64,000 nt of DNA from Candidatus Fermentimicrarchaeum limneticum (GTDB lineage Archaea; Micrarchaeota; Micrarchaeia; Burarchaeales; Fermentimicrarchaeaceae), in the NCBI GenBank assembly GCA_013426015.1, contig CP058998.1, positions 1,050,758 through 1,114,757 of the forward strand, written 5' to 3'. Position numbers and translations under genes: made by a program. The notes beneath the pieces were generated by a model that worked only from the letters and a program-made list of their open reading frames with translations, had not been told where the DNA came from and did not search any database. Positions 6,142 to 22,160 of the stretch are shown piece after piece; within the stretch, counting starts at the first letter, position 1; each line of letters opens with the position of its first letter.

Positions 6142-6396
6142 ATGGAACGGCTAATCTTTGACAGGAAGAGACATGCGGTTATTCTGAATCTGAATACGAG
6201 GGTTTACAAGATGGATAAAATACTCAAAATTGCTCAGACTTTCTCGCAGGCATGCAACGTGGACGTATCTGGAGATGTTGATTGCACGGTGCAGGTGACG
6301 CTTAAACCAAAGTCGAGGAATATGAGAGCGGAGGAAATTGGATACGAGTTCTTCAATCACGTGCTCGCCGAGATGAAGATTTCTGAGGATATATAG
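6142..6396 (+). CDS. Small HxsD-like protein, paralog 2 (start trimmed to the internal Met to remove the overlap with the previous ORF)
   Basis: It is 84 aa from MERLIFDRK... and ends 8 nt before hxsB. It is paralogous to 5721..6134 (VDVSGDVDCTVQVTLKPKS versus VMLDGDPNDEIIAELKPKN; EFFNHVLAEM versus EELLNYAVYY). Confidence 0.4.
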   Translation: MERLIFDRKRHAVILNLNTRVYKMDKILKIAQTFSQACNVDVSGDVDCTVQVTLKPKSRNMRAEEIGYEFFNHVLAEMKISEDI

Positions 6397-6403
6397 TGAT
6401 AGG

Positions 6404-7837
6404 ATGGTCACGAGTCTCTTCGATTATCCCGAATCTCCTCAATACGCAGAGAACAGGTACATTCCAAAGAAACTTGCGGAGGGGGATTACCTGGTGACCA
6501 TTGATAACGGAGCATGGGCGTTGCTCTCTGAGGAAGAGCATGAACTGCTGAAAACCCATCGCGTTTCAGAGAATCCAGATCTATTCAAGAAATTGGAGAG
6601 TTTGGGGATAATCATAACGCAAAGCAACCAAGCGAAAGTGGTTGGCGATTACCAAGCAAGATTCTCCCACATATGCAACGGTACCTCTCTCCACATAGCC
6701 GCAATTACTTCTAGATGCAACCAGAGATGTCTCTACTGCTACGTCAACCCAAAACCAATCAGTTCAAAAGGATTCGATATGGACAAAGACACTGCCAAGA
6801 GAGTCGTCGAGTTCATGTTCCAAAGCCCATCGAAAGCAATAACAATAGAATTTCAGGGTGGGGAGCCCCTCCTTAACTTCCCGATCATTCAATACATAAT
6901 AGACTACTCAAAGAAGCTGAACAAAAAATACAAGAAGGATATTGTCTACACCCTTGTCACCAACCTGACGCTGATGCAGGAGGACATCCTGAAGTACTTG
7001 ATTAGAAATAGGGTCGGAATCTGCACCTCGCTGGATGGTCCGAAAGAGGTGCACGATAGGAACAGGAGGTTTCTGGGCGGGCATGGTACGCACGATGAGG
7101 TTGTCCACTGGATACAGGACATAAAAACCCAGTTCGCCTACAACGTTAATGCTCTCCCAGTTATAACGAAATTCTCCCTTCCCTACGCCAAGGAAATAGT
7201 TGATGAATACGTGAACCTTGGATTCAACCGTATAAGAATAAAGCATATGATATACTGCGGTCTCGCAAAAGAAAATTGGAACAAGATAGGCTACACACCC
7301 GAGCAGTACCTCAAATTCTGGAAGGGGGCTCTGGAATACTGTTTCAAGATAAATAAGAGTGGCAGGTTTTTTGCAGAGGGAACAAGCCTTCTTATAACCC
7401 GAAAGTTCCTGTCGAGGGACTATCAGGCATTCACCTGCCTGGGGTGGCCATGTGGTGCTGCCTTGACTCAAACCTCATACGACCCGCACGGGGATATACG
7501 CTCATGCGACGAATCGAGAAGCTTCGAGGAATTCAAGATTGGGAGCGTTAGGAAGGACAGCTACAGGAACGTCTACACCTCGCCAAGAGTGCTCAATATC
7601 GTTGCTCTTACTTCTGGCCTCAACTCGCTATGCGATGCATGCGTGTGGCATCCCTACTGCAACAACTGCATCGTATCTTCCTTCGGCATGGAAGGGAACC
7701 CAGTCCCCAAACTTCCCATTGATTATGAGTGCAAAATCCGAGGGGGGCTTATCGAGCATGTTCTTAGAACCCTAGCATACTCAAAAGAAAAAAGAAAGAT
7801 TCTGATGGAATGGTGCTCAAGCAAGCAGGGAATATGA
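6404..7837 (+). CDS. hxsB: Radical SAM/SPASM-domain peptide maturase, HxsB-like
   Basis: It carries a CNQRCLYC (Cx3Cx2C) radical-SAM cluster motif and a GGEPLL SAM-binding glycine motif. C-terminal SPASM-type auxiliary cluster cysteines are present (CLGWPCGAA...CDESR...CDACVWHPYCNNC). It is adjacent to the His-Xaa-Ser repeat ORF. Confidence 0.65.
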   Translation: MVTSLFDYPESPQYAENRYIPKKLAEGDYLVTIDNGAWALLSEEEHELLKTHRVSENPDLFKKLESLGIIITQSNQAKVVGDYQARFSHICNGTSLHIAAITSRCNQRCLYCYVNPKPISSKGFDMDKDTAKRVVEFMFQSPSKAITIEFQGGEPLLNFPIIQYIIDYSKKLNKKYKKDIVYTLVTNLTLMQEDILKYLIRNRVGICTSLDGPKEVHDRNRRFLGGHGTHDEVVHWIQDIKTQFAYNVNALPVITKFSLPYAKEIVDEYVNLGFNRIRIKHMIYCGLAKENWNKIGYTPEQYLKFWKGALEYCFKINKSGRFFAEGTSLLITRKFLSRDYQAFTCLGWPCGAALTQTSYDPHGDIRSCDESRSFEEFKIGSVRKDSYRNVYTSPRVLNIVALTSGLNSLCDACVWHPYCNNCIVSSFGMEGNPVPKLPIDYECKIRGGLIEHVLRTLAYSKEKRKILMEWCSSKQGI

Positions 7838-8241
7838 CCAGCCCCAGCACCAACCCAAAAATTTATATACTACTGTTCAGAAATATTCCCGTGGCAAAAA
7901 AGTTCAGCTTACCATCCCTAAGTAAGACTGTCACCTCATTTCTGCTTGAGGAGGAGGGTAAAATATCAAAGGAATCGCTTCTTAAGCTAGGTGCGGTTGT
8001 CGGCAGCATCTCTGCAATGAGCAAAATTGCAAGTGCAGCCCACAGCCAGAATGTTGCCCACTCCCAAGCTACATCTGTTAGTTACGCGGGATCAACAATA
8101 ACCGCAACCCACTCACACTACGACCCGGCACATTCATCGCACTCCTCCCACAGCTCCCATGCGTCACACACCTCCCATGCGTCACACACCTCGCATTCCG
8201 TCCATAGCTCTACTGGTGGTAGTTGCGTCTACATCGGGTGA
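7810..8241 (+). CDS. hxsA: His-Xaa-Ser repeat protein, HxsA-like putative precursor/substrate
   Basis: The C-terminal tail is HSHYDPAHSSHSSHSSHASHTSHASHTSHSVHSSTGGSCVYIG, with at least 7 consecutive H-x-S triplets. This part is encoded with an 18-nt perfect tandem repeat (ccatgcgtcacacacctc x2 at 8157..8192). The true start may be an internal Met (for example 7834). Confidence 0.55.
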   Translation: MVLKQAGNMTSPSTNPKIYILLFRNIPVAKKFSLPSLSKTVTSFLLEEEGKISKESLLKLGAVVGSISAMSKIASAAHSQNVAHSQATSVSYAGSTITATHSHYDPAHSSHSSHSSHASHTSHASHTSHSVHSSTGGSCVYIG

Positions 8242-8245
8242 TCAT

Positions 8246-8803
8246 TTGCTTCTGAAAAGAGTCAGAATTCCGCTAGTCAATATAAGGAAGAAGTATTTCG
8301 TTTACCTAATCCTGGTATTCTTCGTTTCACTAATACTGCATGAATTCGGGCATATCGCAGTTGTACTTGCCGGAGGTGGCAGAATAACCTCATTCACTCT
8401 GACACGCCTTACTTGGGAGGCTCAACCTTCCGGTGATCTGCCATATCTTCTAGGCGGACCGTTGGTTACGTTAATCATATGCTACTTTGCAGTATACAAA
8501 TTTTTTGATGATAGAAAAAACCCCGACCTATGGCTTGCAACAGTAGTCTGCAATCTCTCTCCACCCATTTCACTGATGCTCTACTTGCTTTCGCTCCCGC
8601 ATGACGAAGGTAAAATAATGAGTTTGGCGAATATCCCACCGATAATATTCTTACCAATTTATTTTCTTATCTTTTCGCTGCCAATACTCGTAGCATTTAA
8701 AGCCCCCAAACTCCCCATCAACAAAAAGATAACATTCTATCTTTACAATCTGGTCATCCTACTCGCAGAATTAAAATTTTTAAGCATACTCGGATTTTCT
8801 TAG
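8246..8803 (+). CDS. Membrane-embedded HExxH zinc-metallopeptidase-like protein; the start is uncertain
   Basis: A LILHEFGHIAVVLAGGG motif sits inside a predicted TM helix, with several further TM segments, in site-2-protease/M50-like style. The ORF track extends it upstream to 8159, overlapping hxsA out of frame; I chose the in-frame TTG at 8246, right after the hxsA stop. Confidence 0.4.
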   Translation: MLLKRVRIPLVNIRKKYFVYLILVFFVSLILHEFGHIAVVLAGGGRITSFTLTRLTWEAQPSGDLPYLLGGPLVTLIICYFAVYKFFDDRKNPDLWLATVVCNLSPPISLMLYLLSLPHDEGKIMSLANIPPIIFLPIYFLIFSLPILVAFKAPKLPINKKITFYLYNLVILLAELKFLSILGFS

Positions 8804-8839
8804 GATAAATTTTTAAGCTACGACGCCTAAACGTATAAT

Positions 8840-9421
8840 GTGCTCGAACGGTTAACTCAAAGAAGATATCTACTCCTAGCTCTAGTCTTATTCACATTCA
8901 TCGCTTATGTTGTTTACCGGGAGTACGATACATCACAAAGATGCGGCGGGAAGCCCTGCCCAGAAGAACTGACTGCAAAATTAATAAAGAAGTATTCCAA
9001 CTCCCCGAATTGCAGTAATGGACTGTGTCCATTTGACCTAGTGAGAGAGTGGGAGGATAACAAATGCCCAATTGAACTATCAAACTCGCTAGTCTATGAT
9101 GTCCATATAGCGAATAACCCAGATGGCTCACTTAAAGATTTCACCTGCGAATTCGGTCCGATGTACAAACTAGTTGATTCAACACCGACAGAAGCAACCA
9201 TAAAAGATTGCAGCCAAGAAACCGTGGAGTCATTAGATAACGCAATAAAAGGAAAAAACATGACGCCAGTAAAATACGCGAGAACAATATATGTTTTTCC
9301 ACCTAATTTTGTGGACTATCACTATACCGTGCTTGCATGCGACAAATATACCTCGGGTCTTTTTAACGGAAGATATCTCATGCTGACTTTCGTCAACTTT
9401 TCTGGGCTTCTATATGGCTGA
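8840..9421 (+). CDS. N-terminally membrane-anchored Cys-rich extracytoplasmic protein of unknown function
   Basis: It has a single N-terminal TM (YLLLALVLFTFIAYVVY). About 14 Cys fall in CxxKPC, NCSNGLCPF, NKCP, FTCEFGP, KDCSQE and LACDKY contexts. Confidence 0.45.
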   Translation: MLERLTQRRYLLLALVLFTFIAYVVYREYDTSQRCGGKPCPEELTAKLIKKYSNSPNCSNGLCPFDLVREWEDNKCPIELSNSLVYDVHIANNPDGSLKDFTCEFGPMYKLVDSTPTEATIKDCSQETVESLDNAIKGKNMTPVKYARTIYVFPPNFVDYHYTVLACDKYTSGLFNGRYLMLTFVNFSGLLYG

Positions 9422-9472
9422 TTGTGGTTCTCACTTCGCTTTTAGCGAAATACAGGCATCCAGAGGCGTATC

Positions 9473-11383
9473 ATGTTTTTTGACTTACTAGACGTAATCA
9501 AAAACGAATTCCCGCAGAGTACCCTCTCTATGCAGAGCCGGGATATCTTTCACATCGGAAGGATAAGAAACCTGAATGTATCCTACGCCCCTCTTTTTGG
9601 CAAAGTCTTCGTTTATGATGACGAATTCAGTAGAACCATGATGCATACCCCTGAAGATTTTGAGAGAAATGTCCTTCCCGACCTAGGTCGCTGTAATGTG
9701 CCCTCCCCCCCGGATGACAAGTTCGATACTTTCGGGATACTCCCGACTTCTGAATGCAATCTGAGATGCGTCTACTGCTATGCTAAAGGCGGTGAAACTA
9801 GAAAAAATTTGGATATTGGAACTTTAAAAAAAGCTGTGGAGTTCATGAACAATAATTCGAAAGAGCAGGTACTGGTATTCTTTCACGGTGGCGGGGAACC
9901 AACAACCAAATTCAAACTGCTAATTGAAATTAAGAGGTATGTAGACAAAAATTTGAAAGCTGAAAAGAGTTTCACACTGCAAACAAATGGTATTTTCTCG
10001 AATGAGGTGAGAAGCTGGGTATCAAAAAATATCGACCACGTCGCGCTCTCCTGCGATGGTCCTCCGCATATACAGGATTTCCAAAGACCTTTAAAAAACG
10101 GCGGGAGAAGCAGCCCTATTGTTGAGGAAAGCATCCGATATTTTGTTGAAAAATCAAAAAATATGACCATCGCAACAGTCATATCAAAATTTTCAAATGA
10201 ACGGCAAGAGGATATACTCGAATACTTGCACAAGCTCGGTGTAAAAAAAGTGAAATTCACTCCCCTTACTGAAAGAGGCAGATGTCTATGCGGTGCAACT
10301 GACTATTCCGCCAGACCCGACATGCTAAAATTTTTCACAAACAATCTTACAAGGAGCATCGAGTTGGCGGATATTTACGATATCAAGCTCCTATACCCCG
10401 GCTTAATTGATTCGTGCCGTGACGTCTCGTGCTTTGTAGCTGGGAGGTCGTTTATTTTGACACCAGACGGGTTTGTCAGCCCCTGTGTTTCCGTGCATTG
10501 CGGCGATTCAGATTTTAATGAGCTGCTCTTCGGCTATTTTGACAAGGAGAAGGGTGAAATAAAAATTGATAAGAAAAAATTGGATTTTCTGCGGAATAGA
10601 GTAGTGCAGAACATCCCAGCATGCAAGAATTGTTTTATGAAATGGAACTGCAGCGGCGGATGCGCAATCTCCGCCTGCATGATTTACGGAAAGGACATCT
10701 ACTCCCCACAAAGAGGACATTGCGACTGGATTAGAAAGCTAGGTGAAGGCGCCCTGCGCTATAAGGTCGAGAAATACCTTTTAAAGACAAAGCCTTTTCT
10801 GGAGGAAAGAAATGGCACAATAGAATACCGGGAGGTATTAGATGACTTTGAACCCAAAAAACCCCCAACCAAGAGAAAAGAAGATTTGGTACTACAGGTA
10901 GACGCAAACAAATCAAGTCTTGCTTTGACCTACGATAGAATTATAAAAACCAATCCACGGCTGAGTCTGATATCTTTCAGACTGCGTCCCAAAGATTTAA
11001 ATTTGGAAACAGGCAGAAGGATTGAAAAATTTTTGAGAACTCTGAAACTAAAACGCATCAATTTCATCGTGACAAGACCACTGCCGAGATGCCTATTCAA
11101 CCATGAGTACGCGAAGGCTGCCGAGGATTTTAGAATTCCGAAAAATTGTGAGGAATGCACCTGGCTTTTTGTGCTGAAAGACAGCAATTTCCACATCTGC
11201 AATACAGATATAAAAATACCTGAAGACAAAATAAGGAGCAGAAGGGAGGTATACGAATTTTTCAAAAAACAAAACAAGAGAATTTTTGATTCTCCATGCA
11301 GTGAATGCGTATACCGGATAAGAGGAAATTGCAATGGTTTGTGCCGAGGATACAGAAATAAAAATATTCATGCGGTGCGATAA
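9473..11383 (+). CDS. hxsC: Large radical SAM/SPASM-like maturase, HxsC-like
   Basis: It carries CNLRCVYCYA (Cx3Cx2C) and FFHGGGEPT. A SPASM-like segment CKNCFMKWNCSGGCA is followed by an extra Cys-rich C-terminal extension (CEECTWLF...CSECVYRIRGNCNGLCRGY). It is 636 aa. Its stop overlaps the start of the next radical-SAM gene (TAATG). Confidence 0.55.
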   Translation: MFFDLLDVIKNEFPQSTLSMQSRDIFHIGRIRNLNVSYAPLFGKVFVYDDEFSRTMMHTPEDFERNVLPDLGRCNVPSPPDDKFDTFGILPTSECNLRCVYCYAKGGETRKNLDIGTLKKAVEFMNNNSKEQVLVFFHGGGEPTTKFKLLIEIKRYVDKNLKAEKSFTLQTNGIFSNEVRSWVSKNIDHVALSCDGPPHIQDFQRPLKNGGRSSPIVEESIRYFVEKSKNMTIATVISKFSNERQEDILEYLHKLGVKKVKFTPLTERGRCLCGATDYSARPDMLKFFTNNLTRSIELADIYDIKLLYPGLIDSCRDVSCFVAGRSFILTPDGFVSPCVSVHCGDSDFNELLFGYFDKEKGEIKIDKKKLDFLRNRVVQNIPACKNCFMKWNCSGGCAISACMIYGKDIYSPQRGHCDWIRKLGEGALRYKVEKYLLKTKPFLEERNGTIEYREVLDDFEPKKPPTKRKEDLVLQVDANKSSLALTYDRIIKTNPRLSLISFRLRPKDLNLETGRRIEKFLRTLKLKRINFIVTRPLPRCLFNHEYAKAAEDFRIPKNCEECTWLFVLKDSNFHICNTDIKIPEDKIRSRREVYEFFKKQNKRIFDSPCSECVYRIRGNCNGLCRGYRNKNIHAVR

Positions 11384-12339
11384 TGGGGAGACGACTTGAT
11401 TTGAAGGTTGGTTTTTCCTGCAACAATAACTGTAGCTTCTGCGTTCAGGGCCGTAAAAAGAATCTGGGTGACAAAACTGCAGCGCAGATCAAAAAAGATC
11501 TGAAAGACACAATCGAAGAGGGCATAGAGGAGGTTGTATTTACCGGAGGCGAGCCAACAGTACGCAAGGATATACTCGAGCTTGTCTCATACGCCACTGA
11601 CTTGGGTTATAAAATAATTCAGATTCAAAGCAACGGCAGGATGTTTTTTTATAAGAAGTTCTGCGAGGACATCATAAGGGCAGGTGCGAATGAGTTCTCG
11701 CCAGCAATCCACGGCCACATACCGCAGCTGCACGATTACCTCACCCGCTCGCCAGGCAGCTTCGAGCAGACAGTGCAGGGGATAAGGAATCTCAAGGGGA
11801 TGAACCAGCACATAATAACAAACTCGGTTGTGACAAAACCCAACTATAGGCATCTCCCGGAGTTGGCAGAACTTCTTGTCCAACTTCAGGTCGACCAGTT
11901 CCAAATGGCGTTTGTGCATGCTGACGGCAACGCCTACCTTTATTTTGACCGGATAGTTCCAAGAAAATCACTCGCAGCCCCCTATATCAAGCGGGCTCTG
12001 CAGATAGGGATTGATGCAAAAATCCGAGTTATGGCAGAAGCAATCCCGTACTGTTTCATGAAGGGATATGAGCAATACGTGTCGGAAATTTACATTCCAT
12101 CCACAAAAATAATAGATTTTGAATTTACTGATCCGAATTTTGAATACACCCGAGCTTCGCAGGGCAAGTGCAAAGCACCAAAATGCAAGAGATGTAAATA
12201 TTACCTCATCTGCGAGGGACCTTGGAAAGAATATCCAGAAAGAAGAGGATGGGAAGAATTCGTGCCGATTCCAGGCAGAAAAATGAAGAGCAGAGACCAA
12301 CTATTCAAAACCCGCAGGAGTGATACTGATGTTTCCTAA
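11383..12339 (+). CDS. Radical SAM enzyme, paralog 1 of a five-member tandem family
   Basis: N-terminal VGFSCNNNCSFC (Cx3Cx2C), FTGGEPT and a C-terminal CKRCKYYLICEGPWKEY (CxxC-x5-C-x-G-x-W, twitch/SPASM-like). Its nucleotide sequence shares a 58-nt identical tract with paralog 4. Confidence 0.65.
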   Translation: MGRRLDLKVGFSCNNNCSFCVQGRKKNLGDKTAAQIKKDLKDTIEEGIEEVVFTGGEPTVRKDILELVSYATDLGYKIIQIQSNGRMFFYKKFCEDIIRAGANEFSPAIHGHIPQLHDYLTRSPGSFEQTVQGIRNLKGMNQHIITNSVVTKPNYRHLPELAELLVQLQVDQFQMAFVHADGNAYLYFDRIVPRKSLAAPYIKRALQIGIDAKIRVMAEAIPYCFMKGYEQYVSEIYIPSTKIIDFEFTDPNFEYTRASQGKCKAPKCKRCKYYLICEGPWKEYPERRGWEEFVPIPGRKMKSRDQLFKTRRSDTDVS

Positions 12340-13213
12340 CAAAGTTGATGTGCTGTGCGGTTACACCTGCAACAATAATTGCCTTTTCTGCTTCATCAAA
12401 GGTAGAAAGACCGCTGATGGGACCACTTCGCAGATAAAAAAAATCCTGAACAATCTAAGGGCAGAGGGGTTCAGCGAGGTTATTTTCAATGGAGGTGAAT
12501 CGACCATCCGGAGAGATTTCATAGAGCTAGTGGGGTACGCCAGCGAGCTCGGCTTCCCCAAAGTGAATGTAAGTTCAAATGGCAGGATGTTCTGCTACAA
12601 GGATTTCGCTAGGAAGGCTGCGGAGGCGGGTCTGACGAATGCCATAATATCAATGCACGGTTCAAATGCAAAAACCCACGATATGCTGACGAGAGTCCCC
12701 GGAAGTTTCAAACAGACAATGAAGGGAATGGATAATCTAATCGGAGTCGGGGTAAAAACAATGTCGAATACGACCATAGCAAAGCAGAACCATACTGAAC
12801 TGCCGCGGTTGGTAAAACTCTTATCAAACTTTGATTTGGTGTGGAGGGAATTTATTTTCGTGCATCCCGGAGGGGCTGCTTTGCAGAATTTTGAAAGTGT
12901 TGTGCCTACCCTAACAGAGATTGCGCCATCTCTGCGCAAAGCATTTGACCCAAAGCGAGGCTTTACGAATCTAGGCGTGGAATCTGTTCCGTACTGTTTC
13001 ATGAAGGGATGTGAAAAATTTGTCGTCACACAAAAGATGGAGGCCAGACTGGTGGGGATGGATTTCCAGATAGCCGACGTAAACAAGTCAAGGAGAGAGG
13101 AAGCAAAAATAAAATCGCCGGGGTGTTCCAGATGCAAGTACAACGACAAATGCGAAGGGGTCTGGAGAGCTTATGCAGAAAGATACGGTCTAGGAGAGCT
13201 TAGACCATGCTAA
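12320..13213 (+). CDS. Radical SAM enzyme, paralog 2
   Basis: CGYTCNNNCLFC, FNGGEST and C-terminal CSRCKYNDKCEGVWRAY. It overlaps the previous gene by 20 nt. Confidence 0.65.
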   Translation: MILMFPNKVDVLCGYTCNNNCLFCFIKGRKTADGTTSQIKKILNNLRAEGFSEVIFNGGESTIRRDFIELVGYASELGFPKVNVSSNGRMFCYKDFARKAAEAGLTNAIISMHGSNAKTHDMLTRVPGSFKQTMKGMDNLIGVGVKTMSNTTIAKQNHTELPRLVKLLSNFDLVWREFIFVHPGGAALQNFESVVPTLTEIAPSLRKAFDPKRGFTNLGVESVPYCFMKGCEKFVVTQKMEARLVGMDFQIADVNKSRREEAKIKSPGCSRCKYNDKCEGVWRAYAERYGLGELRPC

Positions 13214-13235
13214 CATGGTAAGATGACGTGGGATT

Positions 13236-14210
13236 ATGCCATCGAATCTAATACGACTGGGGAACAAATGTAATCAAAATTGCATATTCTGCACGGTAGC
13301 CCTAGATAACGAGAGGGAGTTGAGCAATGAAGAGGTGAAGAAAAAAATTGAGTTTTTGTCAGAGAAGGGAGCCGATATACTGACTTTTACGGGCGGGGAG
13401 CCAACAATACGTAAGGATCTGCCGGACTTGATAAGGTTCGCGAAAGGCAAATCCTTCAGGAGAATAGAGCTGCAGACAAACGGAGTTCTAATGTCTGACA
13501 AGAAATTAGCTTGTGAGATAGCCCGCGCAGGTGTTGATGAAGTGCTTGTATCGCTGCACTCCCATAGAAAAAGGATATCGGAAAGGCTCACGAACGTACC
13601 TGGCACGTTCGACAAAACCTTAAAAGGGATAGAAAATCTCTTGGAGCTTGACAAGAGAGTCTGTATCAGCCATGTGATAAACTCGCTCAATTATTCTGAT
13701 TTAACTAATTTTGTGAAGTTTGTCAAGAACAGATTCCCCTCACTATCCTCGTTCTACTTTGGATTTGTGAGGCCAAACGGCAACGCAAATTTCAACAGAT
13801 GGATTGTGCCAAAAATTTCGGACATAGACTTCCGCATATACGGCGTTTTCAGTTACTGCAGGGAACATAAGATACCTTTCTCTGTGGAGGGTATACCGCT
13901 TTGTTACATGCAAGGATACGAGACGCATTCTTCAGAAGTTCACAGGATACTCTCCGAACCAGTTTTCTATATGGGAAGTGGTGATACCCAATACGACGTC
14001 CATAAATTCGTAATAAAGAACTTCAGAGCGAAGGGAGAGCAGTGCGAGTTCTGCTTTGTAAAGGATATCTGCCCCGGTTTATGGAAGGAATACGCGGATA
14101 TATACGGGACAGAAGAGCTGTTCCCAGTTTTCATATCGAAAGAAGGCATAACAAAAGATGTCAAAGAAAGGTGGGTTAAATGGAAAAAGAGGCAGTCACA
14201 AAAGAGTTAA
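13236..14210 (+). CDS. Radical SAM enzyme, paralog 3
   Basis: LGNKCNQNCIFC, FTGGEPT and C-terminal CEFCFVKDICPGLWKEY. It shares a 33-nt identical tract (tttacgggcggggagccaacaatacgtaaggat) with paralog 4. Confidence 0.65.
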   Translation: MPSNLIRLGNKCNQNCIFCTVALDNERELSNEEVKKKIEFLSEKGADILTFTGGEPTIRKDLPDLIRFAKGKSFRRIELQTNGVLMSDKKLACEIARAGVDEVLVSLHSHRKRISERLTNVPGTFDKTLKGIENLLELDKRVCISHVINSLNYSDLTNFVKFVKNRFPSLSSFYFGFVRPNGNANFNRWIVPKISDIDFRIYGVFSYCREHKIPFSVEGIPLCYMQGYETHSSEVHRILSEPVFYMGSGDTQYDVHKFVIKNFRAKGEQCEFCFVKDICPGLWKEYADIYGTEELFPVFISKEGITKDVKERWVKWKKRQSQKS

Positions 14211-15172
14211 ACCTATTCCTAGGTTATACTTGCAATAATAATTGCTGGTTTTGTTCAGAAATGGCGAATAGGGAAAAACCGGGCAAGAGCACAGAAGACG
14301 TAAAAAGAGAGCTAGCTAACGCAAGAAAAAACAGGGTTCAGAGAATTACGTTTACGGGCGGGGAGCCAACAATACGTAAGGATATAGTTGAGATCGTTTC
14401 ATATGCGCATGAACTAGGCTTTGAGGAGATATTCATAATAACGAATGGCAGAATGCTTTTTTACAAGGAATTAGCAAGAAAACTATCAGATGCAGGCCTC
14501 ACCCACATACTTTTCTCTCTGCATGCGCCAGAAGCTAGAATACACGATTACCTCACCCGCTCGCCAGGCAGCTTCGAGCAGACAGTGCAGGGGATAAGGA
14601 ACGCCGTCGGGGTAGGGAACGCCGTCGGGGTAGGGAACATAATCGTGGAGAATAACACGGTCATAACGCGAAAGAACTACAAGTCTCTTCCGAAACTTGC
14701 AGAGCTGCTTATCAAGCTGGGCGTTGACTTCTACGAGTTTATCCTAGTGAACCCCATCACGATAAATTCCTATTTCAGAGGAAGATTTGAGGAGTTTGTC
14801 CCTAGAATCTCCGAGATTCACAAATACGTTCACAGAGCTCTCGACATAGGAAAGGAAAAGAATATCTGGTGCACAGCGGAGGGAATTCCGTTCTGTTACA
14901 TGCAAGGATATGAGAAAAACGCCACGGAATTGTATATGGCTCCTCAGAGGAGCATCCTCGGCCCTGGCGGCCGTTACGTTGCTGACGTAAACAAGTCAAG
15001 GAGAGAGTGCGGCAAGATAAAAGCAGAAACCTGCTCCCGGTGCAGATACTACCTGCTATGCGAGGGGATATGGGGGCACTACGCGGAGCATTACGGGATG
15101 GCGGAGTTCAAACCAGTTGCCGGAAGATATCTGAGAAGTTCAGATATAGCGCGAGGCGGACGGCATGCCTGA
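14180..15172 (+). CDS. Radical SAM enzyme, paralog 4
   Basis: LGYTCNNNCWFC, FTGGEPT and C-terminal CSRCRYYLLCEGIWGHY. It contains an in-frame 18-nt tandem duplication (NAVGVGNAVGVGN). It overlaps the previous gene by 31 nt. Confidence 0.65.
   Translation: MEKEAVTKELNLFLGYTCNNNCWFCSEMANREKPGKSTEDVKRELANARKNRVQRITFTGGEPTIRKDIVEIVSYAHELGFEEIFIITNGRMLFYKELARKLSDAGLTHILFSLHAPEARIHDYLTRSPGSFEQTVQGIRNAVGVGNAVGVGNIIVENNTVITRKNYKSLPKLAELLIKLGVDFYEFILVNPITINSYFRGRFEEFVPRISEIHKYVHRALDIGKEKNIWCTAEGIPFCYMQGYEKNATELYMAPQRSILGPGGRYVADVNKSRRECGKIKAETCSRCRYYLLCEGIWGHYAEHYGMAEFKPVAGRYLRSSDIARGGRHA
14600..14635 (+). repeat. In-frame 18-nt perfect tandem duplication inside radical-SAM paralog 4
   Basis: aacgccgtcggggtaggg is repeated twice, encoding NAVGVG-NAVGVG. 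Confidence 0.8.
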
Positions 15173-16289
15173 CGTCTCCATAGTGAAATGTCCTGATTAC
15201 TCAAAAGTGAAAGTAGCAGTAAAAAGATCATTGGACCTTTTGGGCGGAGCTAGAAAGTTTTTCAAAAAGGATGAGATGATACTGCTTAAACCCAATATAT
15301 CCGACCCTCTCCCTCCCGACAAGGCGAGCAATACCCATCCACTCCTTGTAAGGGCGGTGATTGAGGTTGCGCAGAGGGCAGGAGCCAAGGTTTGGGTAGG
15401 GGAGTGCTCTGCAGGGGGGTCCCCCGGGATAACGAAAAAATGCCTGGAGATATCGGGTATCGGAGATGTGTTGAGGGAAACAGGGGTTGAATTCAAGAAT
15501 TTCCAGGAAGAGGTCTTCGTCCCTCGCGACATACCCGGATTTAAAGTTTTGGAAAAAACGGATTTTGCCGGCTCCTTTTTCCAAGCGGACTCCATTGTGA
15601 ATTTGCCAAAGCTCAAAACGCACGGACTCACCTTCATGACTGGAGCGGTAAAAAACTGCTTCGGGTTCATAAACCCGCAGGAGAGGCAGTACCTGCACAG
15701 AAATTTCCCAGAAAGGGAGCGTTTCAGCCAAGGGCTGGTTGACGTCTACTCATTCATAAAACCAAGATTGACAATAATGGACGCCGTTGTCGGTATGGAG
15801 GGGGAGCAGGGTCCCTCGTTCGGTGACCCAAGGAGAATAGGGGCCGTCATAGCTGGCGGCGACGGAGTTGCAGTAGATGCAGTCGCAGCCGAGATAATAG
15901 GCTACAACCCGCTTGCGATACCTATGATAAGAAGCGCGGATGAACGTGGTGTTGGGAGTATCAGAGGGATACGCGTGGTTGGGAGCAGTATTGATGCGGT
16001 GAAAGTGAGAGATTTCAAAAAACACCCACTCTTCAGCAACAAATACCGGAAAATGCAGGGATTTGGAAGCTCGTTTGTCATGATGCCGGAGGTTGACACA
16101 AGCAAATGCACCAGATGCAGGACCTGTGCGGATAACTGCCCCGTAGGTGCTATATTGATGGATCCCTATCCGGTAATAAACAGAAAGAAGTGCATAATGT
16201 GTTACTGCTGTCATGAGCTATGCCCGTCCGGTGCGTGCAGGCTTGAGGTAAAATGGTTCGGAAAAAAAGATAAAAGAGGAGTGGAATGA
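15165..16289 (+). CDS. DUF362-domain protein with a C-terminal 2x[4Fe-4S] ferredoxin domain
   Basis: The C-terminus carries CTRCRTCADNCP and CIMCYCCHELCP (two CxxCxxCxxxCP motifs). The N-terminal ~300 aa show the DUF362-type fold signature (ILLKPN..., GECSAGGSPGIT). It overlaps the flanking radical-SAM genes by 8 and 4 nt. Confidence 0.55.
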   Translation: MPDVSIVKCPDYSKVKVAVKRSLDLLGGARKFFKKDEMILLKPNISDPLPPDKASNTHPLLVRAVIEVAQRAGAKVWVGECSAGGSPGITKKCLEISGIGDVLRETGVEFKNFQEEVFVPRDIPGFKVLEKTDFAGSFFQADSIVNLPKLKTHGLTFMTGAVKNCFGFINPQERQYLHRNFPERERFSQGLVDVYSFIKPRLTIMDAVVGMEGEQGPSFGDPRRIGAVIAGGDGVAVDAVAAEIIGYNPLAIPMIRSADERGVGSIRGIRVVGSSIDAVKVRDFKKHPLFSNKYRKMQGFGSSFVMMPEVDTSKCTRCRTCADNCPVGAILMDPYPVINRKKCIMCYCCHELCPSGACRLEVKWFGKKDKRGVE

Positions 16290-17182
16290 TGGTTAGCGAC
16301 ATAGCAGTCGGAGTAACATGCAATAACTGTTGCATAATGTGTACAAACATAATGCCCCCCCCAACAAGGTGGGACGCGAGCACTGAGGACATTGAAAGGA
16401 TGGTGCGCAGCTTTGATAAGAAAGAGCGCAAGATAGTGCTGACAGGCGGCGAACCCTCAATAAGAAGTGACTTCCTGCGCATACTCCGGTTCATAAAAAA
16501 GGAGAGGCCTGATTCAAGAACAATGGTTCTTACGAATGGAAGGATATTCTGTTATCCCGAATTCACCAAGAAATTCATCTCCACTGGTTGTGACTGGGTT
16601 GCAATCCCCCTGCACGCTCATAAAGCTGAGTTGCACGACATGATAACGAGGGCTCCTGGCAGCTTCGAGCAGACAGTGCAGGGGATAAGGAACCTGCTTG
16701 ATTACCAGGACGAAGTCGACCTAGACGTGAGAGTTGTAATCCACAGGTTGAACTACAAGCATTTGCCAGCCCTCGCCAAGTTCATCTCCAACGAATTCAA
16801 CGGCCTCCACCAAGTCGTGCTGTTCCCCATAGACATAATTGGGAATGCGAATATAAACAGGAAAGAGCTCCTGGTAAAAATAACTGAAGTCAAACCTTAT
16901 CTTGAAAGAGCACTCAACACGCTAGAAAAAAATGATTTTGATATCAGCCTATTCCACATCCCGTTCTGTGTTTTAGACAGAAAATACTGGAAGAATGTAG
17001 CCGGCAGGACGGTTGAGGATAGGAGGATAACCTTCGAACCATGCGGCGAGTGCATCATGCGGGAAAAATGCCCGGGAATCTGGAGGACGTATGCATTCAG
17101 AGTCGGCACTGCCGAGTTCAAACCCATCCGCCCAGCACCAAAAACAATATATACGAAGTCACCAAATCTAAATGTTAGATGA
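16286..17182 (+). CDS. Radical SAM enzyme, paralog 5
   Basis: VGVTCNNCCIMC (Cx3Cx2C), LTGGEPS and C-terminal CGECIMREKCPGIWRTY. It shares a 35-nt tract (ggcagcttcgagcagacagtgcaggggataaggaa, PGSFEQTVQGIRN) with paralogs 1 and 4. Confidence 0.65.
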   Translation: MMVSDIAVGVTCNNCCIMCTNIMPPPTRWDASTEDIERMVRSFDKKERKIVLTGGEPSIRSDFLRILRFIKKERPDSRTMVLTNGRIFCYPEFTKKFISTGCDWVAIPLHAHKAELHDMITRAPGSFEQTVQGIRNLLDYQDEVDLDVRVVIHRLNYKHLPALAKFISNEFNGLHQVVLFPIDIIGNANINRKELLVKITEVKPYLERALNTLEKNDFDISLFHIPFCVLDRKYWKNVAGRTVEDRRITFEPCGECIMREKCPGIWRTYAFRVGTAEFKPIRPAPKTIYTKSPNLNVR

Positions 17183-19308
17183 CCGTGCCGAGTGTTAAAA
17201 TATTGTCACTTTCCGTTTTTGTACTGCTTCTGTTACCCATGGCAAGGGCGCTTACAACAAATGCAACTGTAACAATAAAGAATCCTTCCGGACAGGCGGT
17301 GGTGAACAGTCAGCAGATGACCTGCACTGCGCTAGGCTCGGGAACGTTTTCCGGCTCCGCGTTTGACAGCCCTACTCTGTGCGGCTTTAACACAACTTCT
17401 GCCAATCTTATAAACCGCACCAATACGAGCTGCGCATACACATATACAAAGAATTACTCAGCAGAAGGTGCCTGGACTGCAAACGTTACATTCTACCACA
17501 CTGCATACGAGAATAGAGGAGTTAATATAGATACCACAAACGGAACTGTTGATACTCAGTCTCCACCAACGGGCCAGGCCACTTTGGACTGCACTGCAAA
17601 TACAACATGCGTGTCAGACCCACAGTGCAACAACACCCTGAACGAGTCAGTGAACATGACCATCTACGCGATAAACTGGGACACAACGCAGGCTGACTGT
17701 GTTGGTTACGGAAAGTTGTGGTATCCCGGTAAGACAAGCGGCTCAAATTACTACTGCTGCGGCGATGATGGAACCAGTGATGATTTTGCATACTGGAGCG
17801 GAACGACATGCATGTACTGCAATAATGGAGTCAACAGCAGCACAACCACAAAGTGTTCTGCCACTTCTGCGTACTGCACGGGGGGTGATAGCGCTACCTG
17901 TCAGAGTGGCGATGACAACTATTGCTGCTACAATGTTGGGTGCTCTTCAACTGGGGCGACGGGTTCTCAGACAAACATGGTTGGTGGCAATTGCACATGC
18001 ACAGATGACCTATGCTACTGGGGTTACTGTGACAATGCTTCTTGGGGTGGAGCGGGCTGCTACTACTCGGTTTCTTGTTCCTCCACTGGCTGGGTAGGCA
18101 ACCTACGCAGCCCTCCAAACGATCCTAGAAACCAGACAGTCTCACCCCAAATTGCAGAGCCTGAAACTACGCTGAATGTAACGGCGAATGTAAGCGACGA
18201 CACTCAGAATGCGCATATAATTGTCTACAATTCTTCAGTAACCACACCTGTCGGTTCCACCGCCATTTGTACTGGAAACGACGTGGGTTCGAATCAGAAT
18301 TCCTCGTGCACCTTCACGGCCTCGGCTGCAGGCTGCTCAGCTGGGAACTGTACGGTCAAAATAATAGCGAGTGAGGAGAACTCTGATGCATGCGGTCCAC
18401 CGAAGTATAGTTTCCATTTCGTTAATGTAAGCTTCACCTATAAGAACAGAAATGTCTCACCACCTACTCGCAACGCACCGGCAAGCGACCCGAATGTGCT
18501 TGTCGGCAACACCTTTGTGCTCAACTGCACTGCACTTACAGGAAATGCTTCCACTGGAATAAACATGTCCTTCCAGTTCAACTCAACAACAGCTGGTTGG
18601 GCGAATATAACCACGTCAGGTGGCTTGACCACAACTCAGACAAACCCAGCTGTGAATGTTCTGAATGGAACAGCATATGCAATCAATGTGACAGGCGTTA
18701 CACCTGGGACTTACTGGGTGCGCTGCCAGGCATTCAACTCAACCTACAGGGCAAACAGCACTGCTCAACAGGTGACAGTGACAACAATACCACCTACGAT
18801 AAATGTGAGCGCAGAGAGCTACCCGAACTGCGGTGCTGTTTTCTACAGAGTGAGCTTCTATGACGTTAATTCAAAACTCATTGACTCCTCTTTCTCCCTC
18901 AAGGTGATAGACCCAAGCGTGATAACTGTTCTGACTCAGGCTGCCCTCTACCCGAATAACGGAACGGGCGTGTACCTCGGCAGCTATCTGCTCAATACAA
19001 GCTCTCCGCTTGGAACGTGGCTGCTAAAGGTGACCGAAAGCTCTGGGGTGACCACGGGGAAGAATTTCTATGTAGTGACTACGTGTGGAGATGGAACTTG
19101 CACAGGAGGGGAGAACTGCGAGAACTGCGCAGCAGATTGTACCTGCTCAGGTTTCTGCCAGGAGGGCACCTGTTACACCTGCTCTGGCTCACACTCCGGC
19201 ACTTGTCCGAGCGAATCAAAGTGCTGCAATTGCGGTATGTGTAACCTCGGTTATTTGTGTATTCCAGAGGAAATGCAATGTGACGGTTTTACATGCGGAT
19301 GTCTCTAA
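17179..19308 (+). CDS. Secreted, extremely Cys/Thr/Ser/Gly/Asn-rich surface protein with a C-terminal Cys-knot-like module
   Basis: It has an N-terminal signal peptide (SLSVFVLLLLPMARALT). More than 60 Cys fall in CCGDDGTSDD, CMYCNNG, CTCTDDLCYWGYC and similar contexts. The C-terminal CGDGTCTGGENCENCAADCTC...CNCGMCNLGYLC module is also found in the downstream pilin. There are many N-x-S/T sequons. Confidence 0.5.
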   Translation: MTVPSVKILSLSVFVLLLLPMARALTTNATVTIKNPSGQAVVNSQQMTCTALGSGTFSGSAFDSPTLCGFNTTSANLINRTNTSCAYTYTKNYSAEGAWTANVTFYHTAYENRGVNIDTTNGTVDTQSPPTGQATLDCTANTTCVSDPQCNNTLNESVNMTIYAINWDTTQADCVGYGKLWYPGKTSGSNYYCCGDDGTSDDFAYWSGTTCMYCNNGVNSSTTTKCSATSAYCTGGDSATCQSGDDNYCCYNVGCSSTGATGSQTNMVGGNCTCTDDLCYWGYCDNASWGGAGCYYSVSCSSTGWVGNLRSPPNDPRNQTVSPQIAEPETTLNVTANVSDDTQNAHIIVYNSSVTTPVGSTAICTGNDVGSNQNSSCTFTASAAGCSAGNCTVKIIASEENSDACGPPKYSFHFVNVSFTYKNRNVSPPTRNAPASDPNVLVGNTFVLNCTALTGNASTGINMSFQFNSTTAGWANITTSGGLTTTQTNPAVNVLNGTAYAINVTGVTPGTYWVRCQAFNSTYRANSTAQQVTVTTIPPTINVSAESYPNCGAVFYRVSFYDVNSKLIDSSFSLKVIDPSVITVLTQAALYPNNGTGVYLGSYLLNTSSPLGTWLLKVTESSGVTTGKNFYVVTTCGDGTCTGGENCENCAADCTCSGFCQEGTCYTCSGSHSGTCPSESKCCNCGMCNLGYLCIPEEMQCDGFTCGCL

Positions 19309-19387: not shown

Positions 19388-20041
19388 ATGCGCAGAGGGC
19401 AGATAAGCTTTGACTTCCTCGTCATAGTAGTTTTTGCCTTCATAATATTCCTCGAGATGTTCCAGCTGTATGCGCTCGAGAGCAGGTCAAGCAGCATAAT
19501 AGAAGGAAAGGCGAGTGCCCTGAGTGTGTGCAGCAAGGTTGCGAGAACAATAAACGAGGTTCTCAAGGCAAACGAAACCAGCGCGGTTGTGACGATACCC
19601 GAGACTTTGGACACTGGCGATACTTACTATCTCAGCATAAAAGCCGCTGGGAGGAGGGTTGATGTCTTCTGGCCGGTTTCAGCACAGAATAGAAGCGTCA
19701 CAGTGCCCATACTGACGAGTAATGTCACTGAGCGGAACATATCAAAATCTCTGGGCTCTGGCGAGACGACAATCAACATCACCAATCGAAATGGAACAGT
19801 GGGCATTTTTATCCTTGGAACATGCGACAACACTGTTTGCGAAGCTGGGGAGAACTGCGAGAACTGCGTTGCAGACTGCACCTGCTATTGTGGGGATGGA
19901 CTGTGCACCCATGCAGCAGGAGAGGACTGCAATACATGCGTGGCTGACTGCGACTGTGAGGCGCCAGCTTCAATCTGCTGTCCTGAATACACAGAGGCGC
20001 ACGGTCTTTGTGTTCTTCAGAGCCAGATGTGTAATCCATAG
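19388..20041 (+). CDS. Type IV pilin-like protein (class III signal peptide) with a C-terminal Cys-rich module
   Basis: The N-terminus is MRRG|QISFDFLVIVVFAFIIFL. The C-terminal CEAGENCENCVADCTCYCGDGLCTHAAGEDCNTCVADCDCE shares a 22-nt identical tract (ggggagaactgcgagaactgcg) with 17179..19308. Confidence 0.55.
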   Translation: MRRGQISFDFLVIVVFAFIIFLEMFQLYALESRSSSIIEGKASALSVCSKVARTINEVLKANETSAVVTIPETLDTGDTYYLSIKAAGRRVDVFWPVSAQNRSVTVPILTSNVTERNISKSLGSGETTINITNRNGTVGIFILGTCDNTVCEAGENCENCVADCTCYCGDGLCTHAAGEDCNTCVADCDCEAPASICCPEYTEAHGLCVLQSQMCNP

Positions 20042-20120: not shown

Positions 20121-22160
20121 ATGAGAAAAGGCCAGCTGTTCAGCCAAGACATAATATTCGCGATAGTCCTGGTATTGTTCACGTTCTCGCTATGGCTTAT
20201 ACTGAGGGACAGGGTGCTGCACGTAATATCCATAACTGAGGACAGGAGGGAGATTGACGAAGCAGCATCAGAAGCCATCGGCCAGCTTCTTGAAACCTCT
20301 GGAAGGCCGACAAACTGGAATAGGCTCTCGGCAATAGACGAAAATACAGTGGAAAGCGTAGGTCTTGCAAGTGAAAGAAACGTTCTGGACAGCGACAAGG
20401 TTGACAAATTCGTAGGCCTAGCGAAAAATCAGATAAGCAGTTTTGTTCTTCTTGCAGCCCTGTGGCATTTCGACGAGGGAATCGACACCACTGCCGCAGA
20501 CAGCTCCGGAAACGGGAATACTGCCGTGTTCAACGGCACTTCACTAACCACATTGGTTCCAAACAGCGTAAACAAGGCGTATTATGCTTCCTCCGCAGTA
20601 TCGGATTCACCAAGCCAGGCAACAACGGAATTCTGGTCGGGAAAATACACCAATGTCCAAAGCTCGGATGCCGCCTATGCATTTGATAGTGCATCCGTTT
20701 CGCAATATGAAGACTGCAAGACACCGTCGCTATCCGGCTCCTGCGCATGCGCAAACGCAGGGATATGCGAGGAGGACACTGTAGAAGGCTGCACCACTGG
20801 CACCATAACGTGCACCTCCACCGGATGCAACCAGAGAGGGAATGCAACGAACTCCAGCAATACTTGCACTGCTTATCCATCTGAGAGCGGATGCAGGGAC
20901 CCTGATCCATGGGACTGCCCTGAGAGCGGAGTAATATGCACTAGTGGAGCCTGCACACCATCCTGCCAGAATCTAGGTTCCTGTTACTATACATGCAACG
21001 CCGGCTACTACAACTGCAATAACGACATAACGACTGACGGCTGCGAAAGCAACTCAGCCTGCTATAATTTCGCCATTCAGAGATACACCTTCAACCTCAG
21101 CTCCTATACTTGGAGTGAGGTGGGCAGCCTGCAATTCTGTTTTGAGGGTTACAACTCGTCCACCGGCGGATTGGCAACAGCAGAACTGATGTGGTATAAC
21201 GTCTCCGGAAGCTCCTGGGTCAGCTCCACCCAAATTTCATCAACAGAGGGCACATGGTGCCTCTCATTCAGCGGTGATAATCTAACTTCGCTTTACAATG
21301 AAACCGGAACATGGGTCCAGTTCGCCGTAAGGGGCAACCAGTCGAAGACAGGGCATGCATTAACACTGGCCGTGGACTATGTATACCTAAACATGACCCG
21401 ATCCCACGCAGTTGAATCGTTATGGACAACGGGAAAATCCGGCAACGGGATCTTTCTTGATGGCGCCGCCCATATGGATGTGGCCGATTCCTCCACCTTG
21501 GACATAACGAACCAGCTTACTATCGAGGCCTGGGTGAAGTCGAGTACTCTCTCCCCGTCCTACCAGACAGTACTCCAGAAAGGCGATTCTTCCAATGAGA
21601 ACTACGGATTGTATCTGAAAGGGAGCGAGGTTTACTTCGAGTGGCTAAACAGCGGGCTCAAATCGAACGAAACAGCGTCAGCAAACCTTCAGGCAAACCG
21701 CTGGCAGCACGTGGCTCTGGTTTTCAATTACTCGGGAGGTTGGGGCAAGCTTTACGTAGACGGCTATGAGAAAAAGAACTTTTCAGTGTCCGCTGACCTG
21801 CTTGCAAACAACGGCAAGCTCCTGATTGGACAAAACAGCTCCGCAGGCAATTATTTCAACGGAACGCTGGACGAGGTTGCAATCTACTCTAGGGCAAAGT
21901 CGGCGGATGAGATAAGGGACGACGCAGGCGCCGGATACACTACAGTAAAGAGGCTTCTGGGTCTGGAGAGGGAAGGATACACCTTCAATTTCACAATCGC
22001 AGATATGGGCGGGAATGTGCTTTACAGCGTCAATGCCTCCCCGCAGGCTGCTCCAAGCGGCGCAGGCTTCGCCGCGGTTAACACCACTGCCTTTATTGAA
22101 AGATTTGCATTATTGAATGACTCCTTGGTCAGGGTCACACTGGGTGTATGGATTGAATAG
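20121..22160 (+). CDS. Large pilin-like adhesin (class III signal peptide) with a LamG/concanavalin-like lectin domain
   Basis: The N-terminus is MRKG|QLFSQDIIFAIVLVLF. LamG_3-type motifs are present: WHFDEGIDTTAADSSGNGN...WQHVALVFNYSGGWGKLYVDGY...NGTLDEVAIYSRAKSADEIRDD. It also has a central Cys-rich segment. Confidence 0.6.
   Translation: MRKGQLFSQDIIFAIVLVLFTFSLWLILRDRVLHVISITEDRREIDEAASEAIGQLLETSGRPTNWNRLSAIDENTVESVGLASERNVLDSDKVDKFVGLAKNQISSFVLLAALWHFDEGIDTTAADSSGNGNTAVFNGTSLTTLVPNSVNKAYYASSAVSDSPSQATTEFWSGKYTNVQSSDAAYAFDSASVSQYEDCKTPSLSGSCACANAGICEEDTVEGCTTGTITCTSTGCNQRGNATNSSNTCTAYPSESGCRDPDPWDCPESGVICTSGACTPSCQNLGSCYYTCNAGYYNCNNDITTDGCESNSACYNFAIQRYTFNLSSYTWSEVGSLQFCFEGYNSSTGGLATAELMWYNVSGSSWVSSTQISSTEGTWCLSFSGDNLTSLYNETGTWVQFAVRGNQSKTGHALTLAVDYVYLNMTRSHAVESLWTTGKSGNGIFLDGAAHMDVADSSTLDITNQLTIEAWVKSSTLSPSYQTVLQKGDSSNENYGLYLKGSEVYFEWLNSGLKSNETASANLQANRWQHVALVFNYSGGWGKLYVDGYEKKNFSVSADLLANNGKLLIGQNSSAGNYFNGTLDEVAIYSRAKSADEIRDDAGAGYTTVKRLLGLEREGYTFNFTIADMGGNVLYSVNASPQAAPSGAGFAAVNTTAFIERFALLNDSLVRVTLGVWIE

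Follow-up and report, generated by a model that had tools for sequence, protein, structure and literature searches.

Probable recurrent short-tract gene conversion among ancient tandem HxsC-family radical SAM paralogues of a DPANN archaeon

INTRODUCTION

How can five genes that have diverged until their synonymous sites are saturated still share tens of nucleotides (nt) without a single difference? The question is raised by a tandem array of radical S-adenosylmethionine (SAM) genes, designated A to E, in a 64-kb stretch of DNA (the window; all positions are counted within it, and it is denoted W in genome comparisons) from a Micrarchaeia-like DPANN archaeon with a small genome. The initial annotation of the window read the identical tracts as gene conversion, with embedded RNA signals as an alternative. 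Here, we find that the former reading is supported by the tracts themselves, the saturated background in which they lie, the ancient orthology of the paralogues, and tract identity within genomes as against tract difference between genomes. We attribute the islands, with a probability of roughly 0.9, to recurrent hot-spot interlocus gene conversion (concerted evolution) among ancient tandem HxsC-family paralogues.

RESULTS

Perfectly identical islands in five diverged genes

The array consists of five open reading frames (ORFs), whose coordinates had all been given exactly in the initial annotation:

11383–12339, + strand: paralogue A, ORF of 318 amino acids, HxsC-family radical SAM enzyme
12320–13213, + strand: paralogue B, ORF of 297 amino acids, GTG start, 20-nt overlap with A
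13236–14210, + strand: paralogue C, ORF of 324 amino acids, HxsC-family radical SAM enzyme
14180–15172, + strand: paralogue D, ORF of 330 amino acids, 31-nt overlap with C
16286–17182, + strand: paralogue E, ORF of 298 amino acids, nearest of the five to canonical HxsC

The genes share the + strand and are tightly spaced, with overlaps of 1–31 nt and all tract partners within 5 kb; this packing is typical of a single operon. A maximal-exact-match scan between the genes yielded the following tracts, all of which lie in frame 0 in both partners:

11731–11789 = 14543–14601, + strand: A/D tract, 59 nt, exact match; the A copy encodes HDYLTRSPGSFEQTVQGIR-N
11755–11789 = 16658–16692, + strand: A/E tract, 35 nt, exact match, the last 35 nt of the A/D tract
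14567–14602 = 16658–16693, + strand: D/E tract, 36 nt, exact match; the D copy spans 14543–14602
13386–13418 = 14351–14383, + strand: C/D tract, 33 nt, exact match, FTGGEPTIRKD with the GGE motif
13076–13099 = 14984–15007, + strand: B/D tract, 24 nt, exact match, DVNKSRRE
12046–12067 = 12989–13010, + strand: A/B tract, 22 nt, exact match, PYCFMKG around the invariant Cys224
13902–13918 = 14894–14910, + strand: C/D tract, 17 nt, exact match

Two of these, the 22-nt A/B and the 17-nt C/D tracts, add to the earlier list, which otherwise needed small corrections. The longest A/D tract is real and starts in A at 11731 as reported, but it comprises 59 rather than 58 nt and starts in D at 14543 rather than 14544, a shift of one base. 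The 35-nt copy does lie at 16658–16692; its encoded peptide is corrected to GSFEQTVQGIR(N), because E has a different Pro codon. The coordinates of the 24-nt B/D tract hold, but the tract encodes DVNKSRRE and not ADVNKSRRE, because the Ala codon differs between the copies. The 33-nt C/D tract was confirmed exactly at the positions first given.

Within the window, D is the hub of the network, being a partner in 4 of the 6 pair combinations that share tracts. In the 33-nt C/D tract, the rare Arg codon CGT is common to both copies. A five-way codon alignment showed sharp tract borders with flanks that are ~50% identical. In the same alignment, B (PGSFKQTMKGMDN) and C (PGTFDKTLKGIEN) differ at the protein level from A, D and E (PGSFEQTVQGIRN) across the main tract; the shared sequence is therefore not dictated by protein constraint.

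Outside the tracts the genes are far from uniformly alike. Protein identity among A–E pairs is 28–43%, with A and D the most alike, and nucleotide identity is 43–53%, falling to 28–38% at third positions. By the Nei–Gojobori method (NG86), the proportion of synonymous differences (pS) outside the tracts is 0.76–0.84, that is, saturated, and inside them it is 0; for the 59-nt A/D tract the values are 0 inside versus 0.82 outside. Identical residues outside the tracts are encoded by the same codon at a frequency of 0.31–0.43, which equals the 0.38–0.40 predicted from codon usage. More than 90% of each gene is saturated, and the homogenised islands measure only 20–80 nt. The initial annotation had proposed synonymous divergence inside versus outside the tracts as a check and had named uniformly high identity as the pattern that would make conversion unnecessary; a pS of 0 against 0.76–0.84 gives the opposite picture.

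The lengths of the tracts were compared with two null distributions. In a codon-resampling null, the five proteins and their alignment were held fixed and codons were redrawn from the genes' own usage in 5000 simulations of the ten pairs. The longest aligned exact run averaged 8–12 nt, and the maximum for any pair was 31 nt. Under this null, the runs of 59, 36, 35 and 33 nt have p < 2e-4, that of 24 nt has p = 0.003, and that of 22 nt has p = 0.01; chance is thereby ruled out for the four long tracts. Codon bias in the genes is mild (homozygosity 0.18–0.57). A silent-site permutation, which is a Sawyer-type test and more conservative than codon resampling, gave p values of 1e-4 for A/D, 0.001 for A/E, 0.003 for D/E and 0.011 for C/D.

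The paralogues predate the divergence of Micrarchaeia lineages

Syntenic arrays were compared in seven further lineages (L001; L009/L010/L011; L012/L013; L014/L015; L016/L017; L018; L019), drawn from independent NCBI, ENA, JGI and Logan assemblies of metagenome-derived data. A scan of genome contigs supplied one close relative, L001; seven distant single-copy homologue loci were left out. The L014 contig starts at a DUF483 gene, and C, D and E were compared there. The closest database relatives of D are 62–75% identical, and those that are named are metagenome-assembled genomes of Candidatus Micrarchaeia or Micrarchaeota.

Orthologues share 67–80% (A), 61% (B), 57–74% (C), 64–74% (D) and 62–69% (E) amino acid identity with the window proteins. 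Outside the motif regions, the nearest neighbour is the orthologue for 33 of 33 genes and never a paralogue from the same genome. Each paralogue thus has its own syntenic orthologue in other lineages, and the duplications are therefore ancient.

The arrays vary in content among relatives, a check that had also been proposed at the outset. Gene B is confined to the window and L009–L011, and the other arrays are without it; fusions and extra genes occur elsewhere. The A proteins of L012/L013 and L018 carry TPR repeats as a C-terminal fusion (L012 3182–5089; L018 4038–5903), and in these arrays a DUF483 gene takes the place of B. A B12-binding radical SAM gene follows E in L012/L013 (L012 10090–12054) and in L019 (5814–7814).

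Tracts recur at the same motifs with lineage-specific sequences

Exact tracts were found again in five of these lineages:

L011: A/D tracts of 60, 39 and 24 nt; A/B tract of 31 nt
L001: A/D tracts of 54 and 22 nt
L012: A/D tracts of 58, 50 and 24 nt; A/E tract of 24 nt
L016/L017: A/D tract of 82 nt
L018: A/E tract of 41 nt

A/D tracts of 54–82 nt fall on one pair of motifs, GGEPT and HD.LT.SPGSF.QTVQGI.N, in 5 of the 7 lineages that have both genes. With 1000 simulations per genome as genome-specific nulls, the longest A/D runs of 59, 60, 54, 58 and 82 nt (W, L011, L001, L012 and L016, respectively) beat every simulation, as does the A/E run of L018. L014 has no tract among C, D and E. L019, which has the same protein motifs without a tract, serves as a natural negative control: no A/D run there exceeds 11 nt (p = 0.65), and its unconverted motif stretches have 63–67% nucleotide identity versus 47% elsewhere in A/D. 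Motif conservation alone is therefore insufficient to produce tracts.

Every one of the 12 tracts that reach 30 nt within a genome is 100% identical between its two copies, and comparison of each copy with each of its own orthologues over the same columns shows 1–31 differences. Compared between W, L011, L001, L012 and L016, the A/D tracts show 6–31 differences. Some of these changes are non-synonymous and co-vary in the two partners: A and D both have SFEQ..IRN in the window, and their shared reading is SFKQ..IKN in L011 and SFNQ in L001; A and B agree on FMKG in the window and on FMQG in L011. Likewise, the 31-nt A/B tract of L011 lies at the same site as the 22-nt A/B tract of the window but has a different sequence. 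Identity within genomes together with divergence between them indicates repeated homogenisation after the lineages split, and hence neither a single ancestral event nor a conserved nucleotide signal. The array thus combines the features on which concerted evolution is diagnosed: within the tracts paralogues are closer than orthologues, synonymous sites are included, the duplication predates divergence, and the pattern recurs. A nearest-neighbour test with fixed windows of 26 and 31 codons gave a mixed result, in which a same-genome gene was the nearest neighbour in only 4 of 33 cases per region, because tract borders vary between genomes and the windows took in unconverted flanks.

The partners also vary. 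The GGEPT tract joins C and D in the window and A and D elsewhere, and A/D is the dominant partnership in the other genomes; that the dominant partners are also the most similar proteins fits homology dependence. L009 and L011 are ~0.5% different in these genes, and a single-nucleotide polymorphism at L009 7602 cuts the 60-nt A/D tract into 23 + 36 nt. The gain or loss of tract identity is therefore fast enough to separate strains. In two cases a probable donor is suggested by the residues carried. The A proteins of L016 and L012 have SLHAPRAEIHDF, which is of the D type, in place of the PAIHGHIPQLHDY of other A orthologues; this indicates a putative transfer from D to A. Similarly, B of the window has the D-type DVNKSRRE (with residues N and R) where B of L011 has DVPKSRKE, indicating that D was the likely donor to B in the 24-nt tract.

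Hot spots map to conserved elements of the radical SAM fold

Much as the initial annotation had recognised, all five proteins contain CX3CX2C near the N-terminus, GGE(P/S)(T/S), and a C-terminal CxxC-x5-C-x-G-x-W. Residues invariant in A–E are, in the numbering of A, C13, C17, C20, G55-G56-E57, C224, C268, C271, C277, G279 and W281. PF04055 matches A–E at E values of 1e-18 to 1e-27 (Pfam). The AlphaFold2 model of D (predicted local distance difference test score 95.6) has its best PDB fold match in BlsE (7vob), aligned over just 220 of 330 residues, and its fold also matches viperin, SuiB, SkfB, MoaA and PqqE. By the cluster motif, the GGE motif and the partial triosephosphate isomerase (TIM)-barrel core, A–E belong to the radical SAM superfamily. 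The Pfam SPASM domain was not detected in A–E. The C-terminal cysteines of D (C239, C285, C288 and C294) are invariant across 72 homologues, which makes a partial SPASM/twitch-like C-terminus, as first suggested, plausible.

The GGE motif binds the amino group of SAM in radical SAM enzymes. In the D model, the GGE hot spot sits at the end of strand β2, and the second hot spot corresponds to the loop and helix after β4 (residues 122–141 of D).

At the family level, the five enzymes match HxsC profiles best, though all lie under the curated HxsC and HxsC4 cutoffs. For A–D the best NCBIfam family is HxsC4 (NF038332), with 125–185 bits against a cutoff of 500; for A, this top match scores 184.5 bits and Pfam Radical_SAM has an E value of 3.6e-21. 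E matches HxsC (TIGR03977) with 209.1 bits, under the cutoff of 267.9.

The array belongs to an expanded Hxs-like cassette

The genes around the array include:

5721–6134, + strand: putative HxsD (TIGR03976, 45.1 bits; cutoff 50)
6007–6396, + strand: HxsD-like ORF (NF038315, 39.8 bits; cutoff 41)
6404–7837, + strand: HxsB radical SAM/SPASM maturase (TIGR03978, 378.4 bits, above the cutoff of 370)
7810–8241, + strand: HxsA-like protein, presumed substrate, ending in HSSHSSHSSHASHTSHASHTSHSVHSS, with about nine consecutive His-Xaa-Ser repeats
9473–11383, + strand: radical SAM/SPASM-like maturase of 636 amino acids, from profile matches, directly upstream of A
15165–16289, + strand: DUF362 protein with two [4Fe-4S] ferredoxin domains (Pfam DUF362 E 1e-53, Fer4), between D and E

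The order across 5721–17182 is HxsD, HxsD-like, HxsB, the HxS-repeat protein, an M50-like membrane protein, a Cys-rich protein of 193 amino acids, the 636-amino-acid radical SAM protein, A-B-C-D, DUF362-ferredoxin, and E. PF27806 HxsD is annotated on the L009 orthologue of the HxsD ORF. The HxsA-like protein matches HxsA3 (29 bits; cutoff 65) and HxsA4 (25 bits; cutoff 55) weakly, and a Pfam search detected no peptidoglycan-binding domain in it. The DUF362-ferredoxin slot between D and E is kept in every related array. The 636-amino-acid radical SAM gene has no common exact tract of at least 14 nt with A–E in the maximal-exact-match scan.

HXS was recently described in E. coli as an anti-phage system whose effector, the HxS-repeat protein HxsA, undergoes maturation by HxsB and HxsC (Li et al. 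2026, PMC13128918). The described systems consist of four genes in the order D-B-C-A, and 99.7% of them are in Pseudomonadota (PMC13128918). The window likewise has an HxsB above its cutoff, HxsD and HxsD-like ORFs just below theirs, an HxS-repeat protein and HxsC-family radical SAM enzymes. However, its host is archaeal, it has five HxsC-like paralogues instead of one, it adds a 636-amino-acid radical SAM/SPASM protein, an M50-like protein and a DUF362-ferredoxin protein, and its order is D-B-A-...-C. Judged by its profile matches, the locus is a predicted Hxs-type protein-modification cassette and an expanded, differently ordered archaeal relative of HXS, with several members scoring below the formal family cutoffs. 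PADLOC v2, which is without an HXS model and predates the HXS description, reported generic viperin-like radical SAM similarity only.

Further observations concern the surroundings of the cassette. A Peptidase_A24 (prepilin-peptidase-like) gene lies upstream at 4567–5655, and the downstream proteins 19388–20041 and 20121–22160 begin with MRRGQISFDF and MRKGQLFSQD, which we take to be archaeal class-III (pilin-like) signal peptides. Genes of these peptidase and signal-peptide types flank the Hxs-like cassette in both the window and L009. The ORFs 20121–22160 and 22557–25613 encode giant Laminin_G_3/TafC-like secreted proteins that share mosaic repeats (21078–25311). Of these, 21855–21939 is 82% identical to 25227–25311 (with a run of ~35 identical nt, by eye) and 69% to 23691–23775; 21244–21397 is 74% identical to 24574–24727, and 21078–21148 is 75% identical to 24393–24463. 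Judging from these repeats, the pair may be a second paralogue family under patch homogenisation. The neighbouring secreted proteins 17179–19308 and 19388–20041 carry a Cys-rich C-terminal motif (..GENCENC..DCTC..), and 19098–19147 and 19837–19886 are 84% identical over 50 nt, with 22 identical nt by eye. Finally, a dispersed 21-nt motif, GGGGTAACTTTCCAGTGAAAG, occurs in three copies that are 95–100% identical (30812–30832, 43454–43474 and 45747–45767).

DISCUSSION

A model of recurrent patch conversion

We propose that patches of ~20–80 nt are copied non-reciprocally between the paralogues, repeatedly, by ectopic homologous recombination in which the heteroduplex or repair patches are short. 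Such events would recur at a few shared sites: the GGE motif, the HD.LT.SPGSF.QTVQGI.N loop and helix, P.C.M.GYE, and DVNKSRRE. These hot spots would be the places of highest residual nucleotide similarity, where swaps are functionally neutral, so that conversion is seeded most easily and does least harm. Every event would re-create perfect local identity and thereby ease the next conversion, whereas conversions extending into paralogue-specific segments would mostly be purged by selection. The tracts end where the proteins turn paralogue-specific, as would be expected either if heterology blocks their extension or if selection acts against longer ones. Both the route of exchange, by RadA-type recombination or by template switching, and the part that selection may play in the borders are inferred. 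The window A/D tract has a GC content of 59%, compared with 47% for the genes and 45–52% for the remaining window tracts, and the L011 tract is AT-rich as judged by eye; there is no consistent bias across tracts that would point to GC-biased conversion. In Sulfolobus acidocaldarius, homologous recombination has been shown experimentally to move multiple short and sometimes discontinuous intervals between moderately diverged DNAs (Mao & Grogan 2012, PMC3367456).

Several points weigh against this model. Exchange is read throughout from fixed sequence patterns rather than from reads or experiment. In the silent-site permutation, the 24-nt B/D (p = 0.08) and 22-nt A/B (p = 0.20) tracts are weak singly; the orthologue comparison corroborates both. 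Moreover, the window and L018 have nearly the same 35–41-mer in A, D and E (34–40 of 35–41 positions identical), and the two are otherwise not each other's closest relatives; part of the PGSF tract may be old or under extra constraint. Finally, the longest perfect A/D match in the unconverted L019 array is 11 nt, and RecA/RadA-type exchange is generally considered to need more homology than ~11 nt to begin.

Alternative explanations

The last point bears on the alternative that survives best, namely that the patches were copied by replication-associated template switching or microhomology-mediated repair between genes 1–5 kb apart, and not by RadA-dependent recombination. An unconverted state that offers merely ~11 nt of perfect homology would suit such a process, as would the shortness of the tracts (22–82 nt), their abrupt borders against flanks of ~50% identity, and the location of all partner genes within 5 kb in the same orientation. 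A possible footprint of slippage begins in the 3′ end of the D tract:

14598–14638, + strand: perfect tandem duplication in D, 18 nt × 2.3 (Tandem Repeats Finder), encoding NAVGVG twice and starting within the last bases of the tract

This duplication lies in a lower-confidence loop of the D model and is missing from every D orthologue compared; confined to one lineage, it may be coincidental. The sequences are equally compatible with the repair of short heteroduplex patches, a process known from archaea (PMC3367456), and a dependence on homology would account at least equally well for the return of tracts to the same motifs in many lineages. We consider template switching the less likely of the two routes.

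It is highly improbable that the tracts are embedded functional nucleotide elements (an RNA structure, a target of small or antisense RNA, or a protein-binding site) held by selection. The 35-mer is present three times in one operon, and the near-identical 35–41-mer in A, D and E of L018 could be taken in the same sense. However, tracts that are identical within genomes differ at up to 31 sites between genomes, the partner pairs change from genome to genome (GGEPT in C/D in the window, in A/D elsewhere), and L019 is without tracts. A search of 7000–18000 against Rfam at E ≤ 1 gave no match, and a search for the 35-mer on both strands of the 64-kb window with up to 3 mismatches found just the three sense copies and no complementary copy. 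The embedded RNA signal that the initial annotation had offered as its alternative is rejected on these grounds.

Even less credence is due to the possibility that the genes are recent duplicates that diverged fast except at their motifs, or that the islands are assembly or polishing artefacts. The tandem arrangement would agree with the former and the use of metagenome assemblies with the latter. But the genes have their own syntenic orthologues, at 57–80% amino acid identity as against 28–43% between paralogues, and recent duplication is ruled out by orthology, synteny and saturated synonymous sites. Assemblies produced independently, by different groups and with different assemblers, show such islands too, and an assembly artefact is unlikely. 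Least probable of all is chance, by which conserved catalytic motifs and codon bias would yield the runs: the tracts do coincide with the most conserved protein motifs, and those of 22 and 24 nt are within reach of the null distribution, but the fixed-protein maximum was 31 nt in 5000 × 10 comparisons against the observed 59, 36, 35 and 33 nt, codon bias is mild, L019 has the motifs without the tracts, and the pattern is repeated with different sequences in 5 further lineages.

Implications

If recurrent gene conversion is accepted, one may ask whether its islands are more than a passive by-product, with patch conversion persisting at two or three fixed motifs since before at least six deeply separated Micrarchaeia lineages diverged. 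We put this forward tentatively, as a possibility with the odds against it. If true, one consequence would be that DPANN recombination or repair starts on ~10–20 nt of perfect homology, and such arrays would serve as natural minimal-homology reporters in uncultivated archaea. The alternative consequence would be that selection keeps the shared segments identical so that the five enzymes fit one common partner. Candidates for the latter would be the DUF362-ferredoxin protein, HxsD or the HxS-repeat substrate, and the case would then be one of co-evolution by conversion in an Hxs-type machine.

Irrespective of this, the locus displays hot-spot conversion on a micro-scale with unusual clarity, in lineage-specific, replicated tracts, and it suggests that ectopic exchange in DPANN archaea works on very short homology. 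It also carries a warning for phylogenies of radical SAM paralogues and for family models, because the motif regions record within-genome history rather than that of the orthologues. In addition, it exposes an expanded archaeal Hxs-like cassette; until now, HXS has been characterised solely from its four-gene proteobacterial form, an anti-phage system.

Comparison with known systems

Long-lasting, recurrent gene conversion is considered rare in prokaryotes, with 19 bacterial and 7 archaeal genes recorded, the archaeal ones all from methanogens (Wang & Chen 2018, PMC6053082). Known examples are tufA/tufB and the methanogen genes mtrA, mtmB/C and mtbB/C (PMC6053082). The window array resembles the tuf and methanogen cases in having greater similarity within genomes than between orthologues, in synonymous identity, in a duplication that precedes speciation, in recurrence, and in its confinement to a single pathway or operon. 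It differs in that those cases homogenise the whole or most of the gene and leave the paralogues nearly identical, whereas here only islands of 20–80 nt are affected. The archaeal hosts of that survey are all methanogens and the host of the window is a DPANN archaeon, so that documented archaeal concerted evolution is extended from methanogens to a small-genome DPANN lineage.

Archibald and Roger reportedly described, in 2002, region-limited gene conversion among the paralogous subunits of the archaeal chaperonin (thermosome). That case is like the window in being archaeal and in reportedly having conversion confined to conserved, shared parts of the proteins while other regions diverge; it involves another protein family, its genes are dispersed rather than tandem, and its tracts were inferred phylogenetically and not as perfect islands.

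The patches of Sulfolobus acidocaldarius match the tract lengths of the window and split tracts such as the 23 + 36 nt of L009 (PMC3367456). Those patches arose by transformation of a crenarchaeon with exogenous DNA and represent neither interlocus exchange nor a DPANN host (PMC3367456). The gene conversion in the window array thus differs from known conversion in scale and in host, not in kind, and is mechanistically ordinary.

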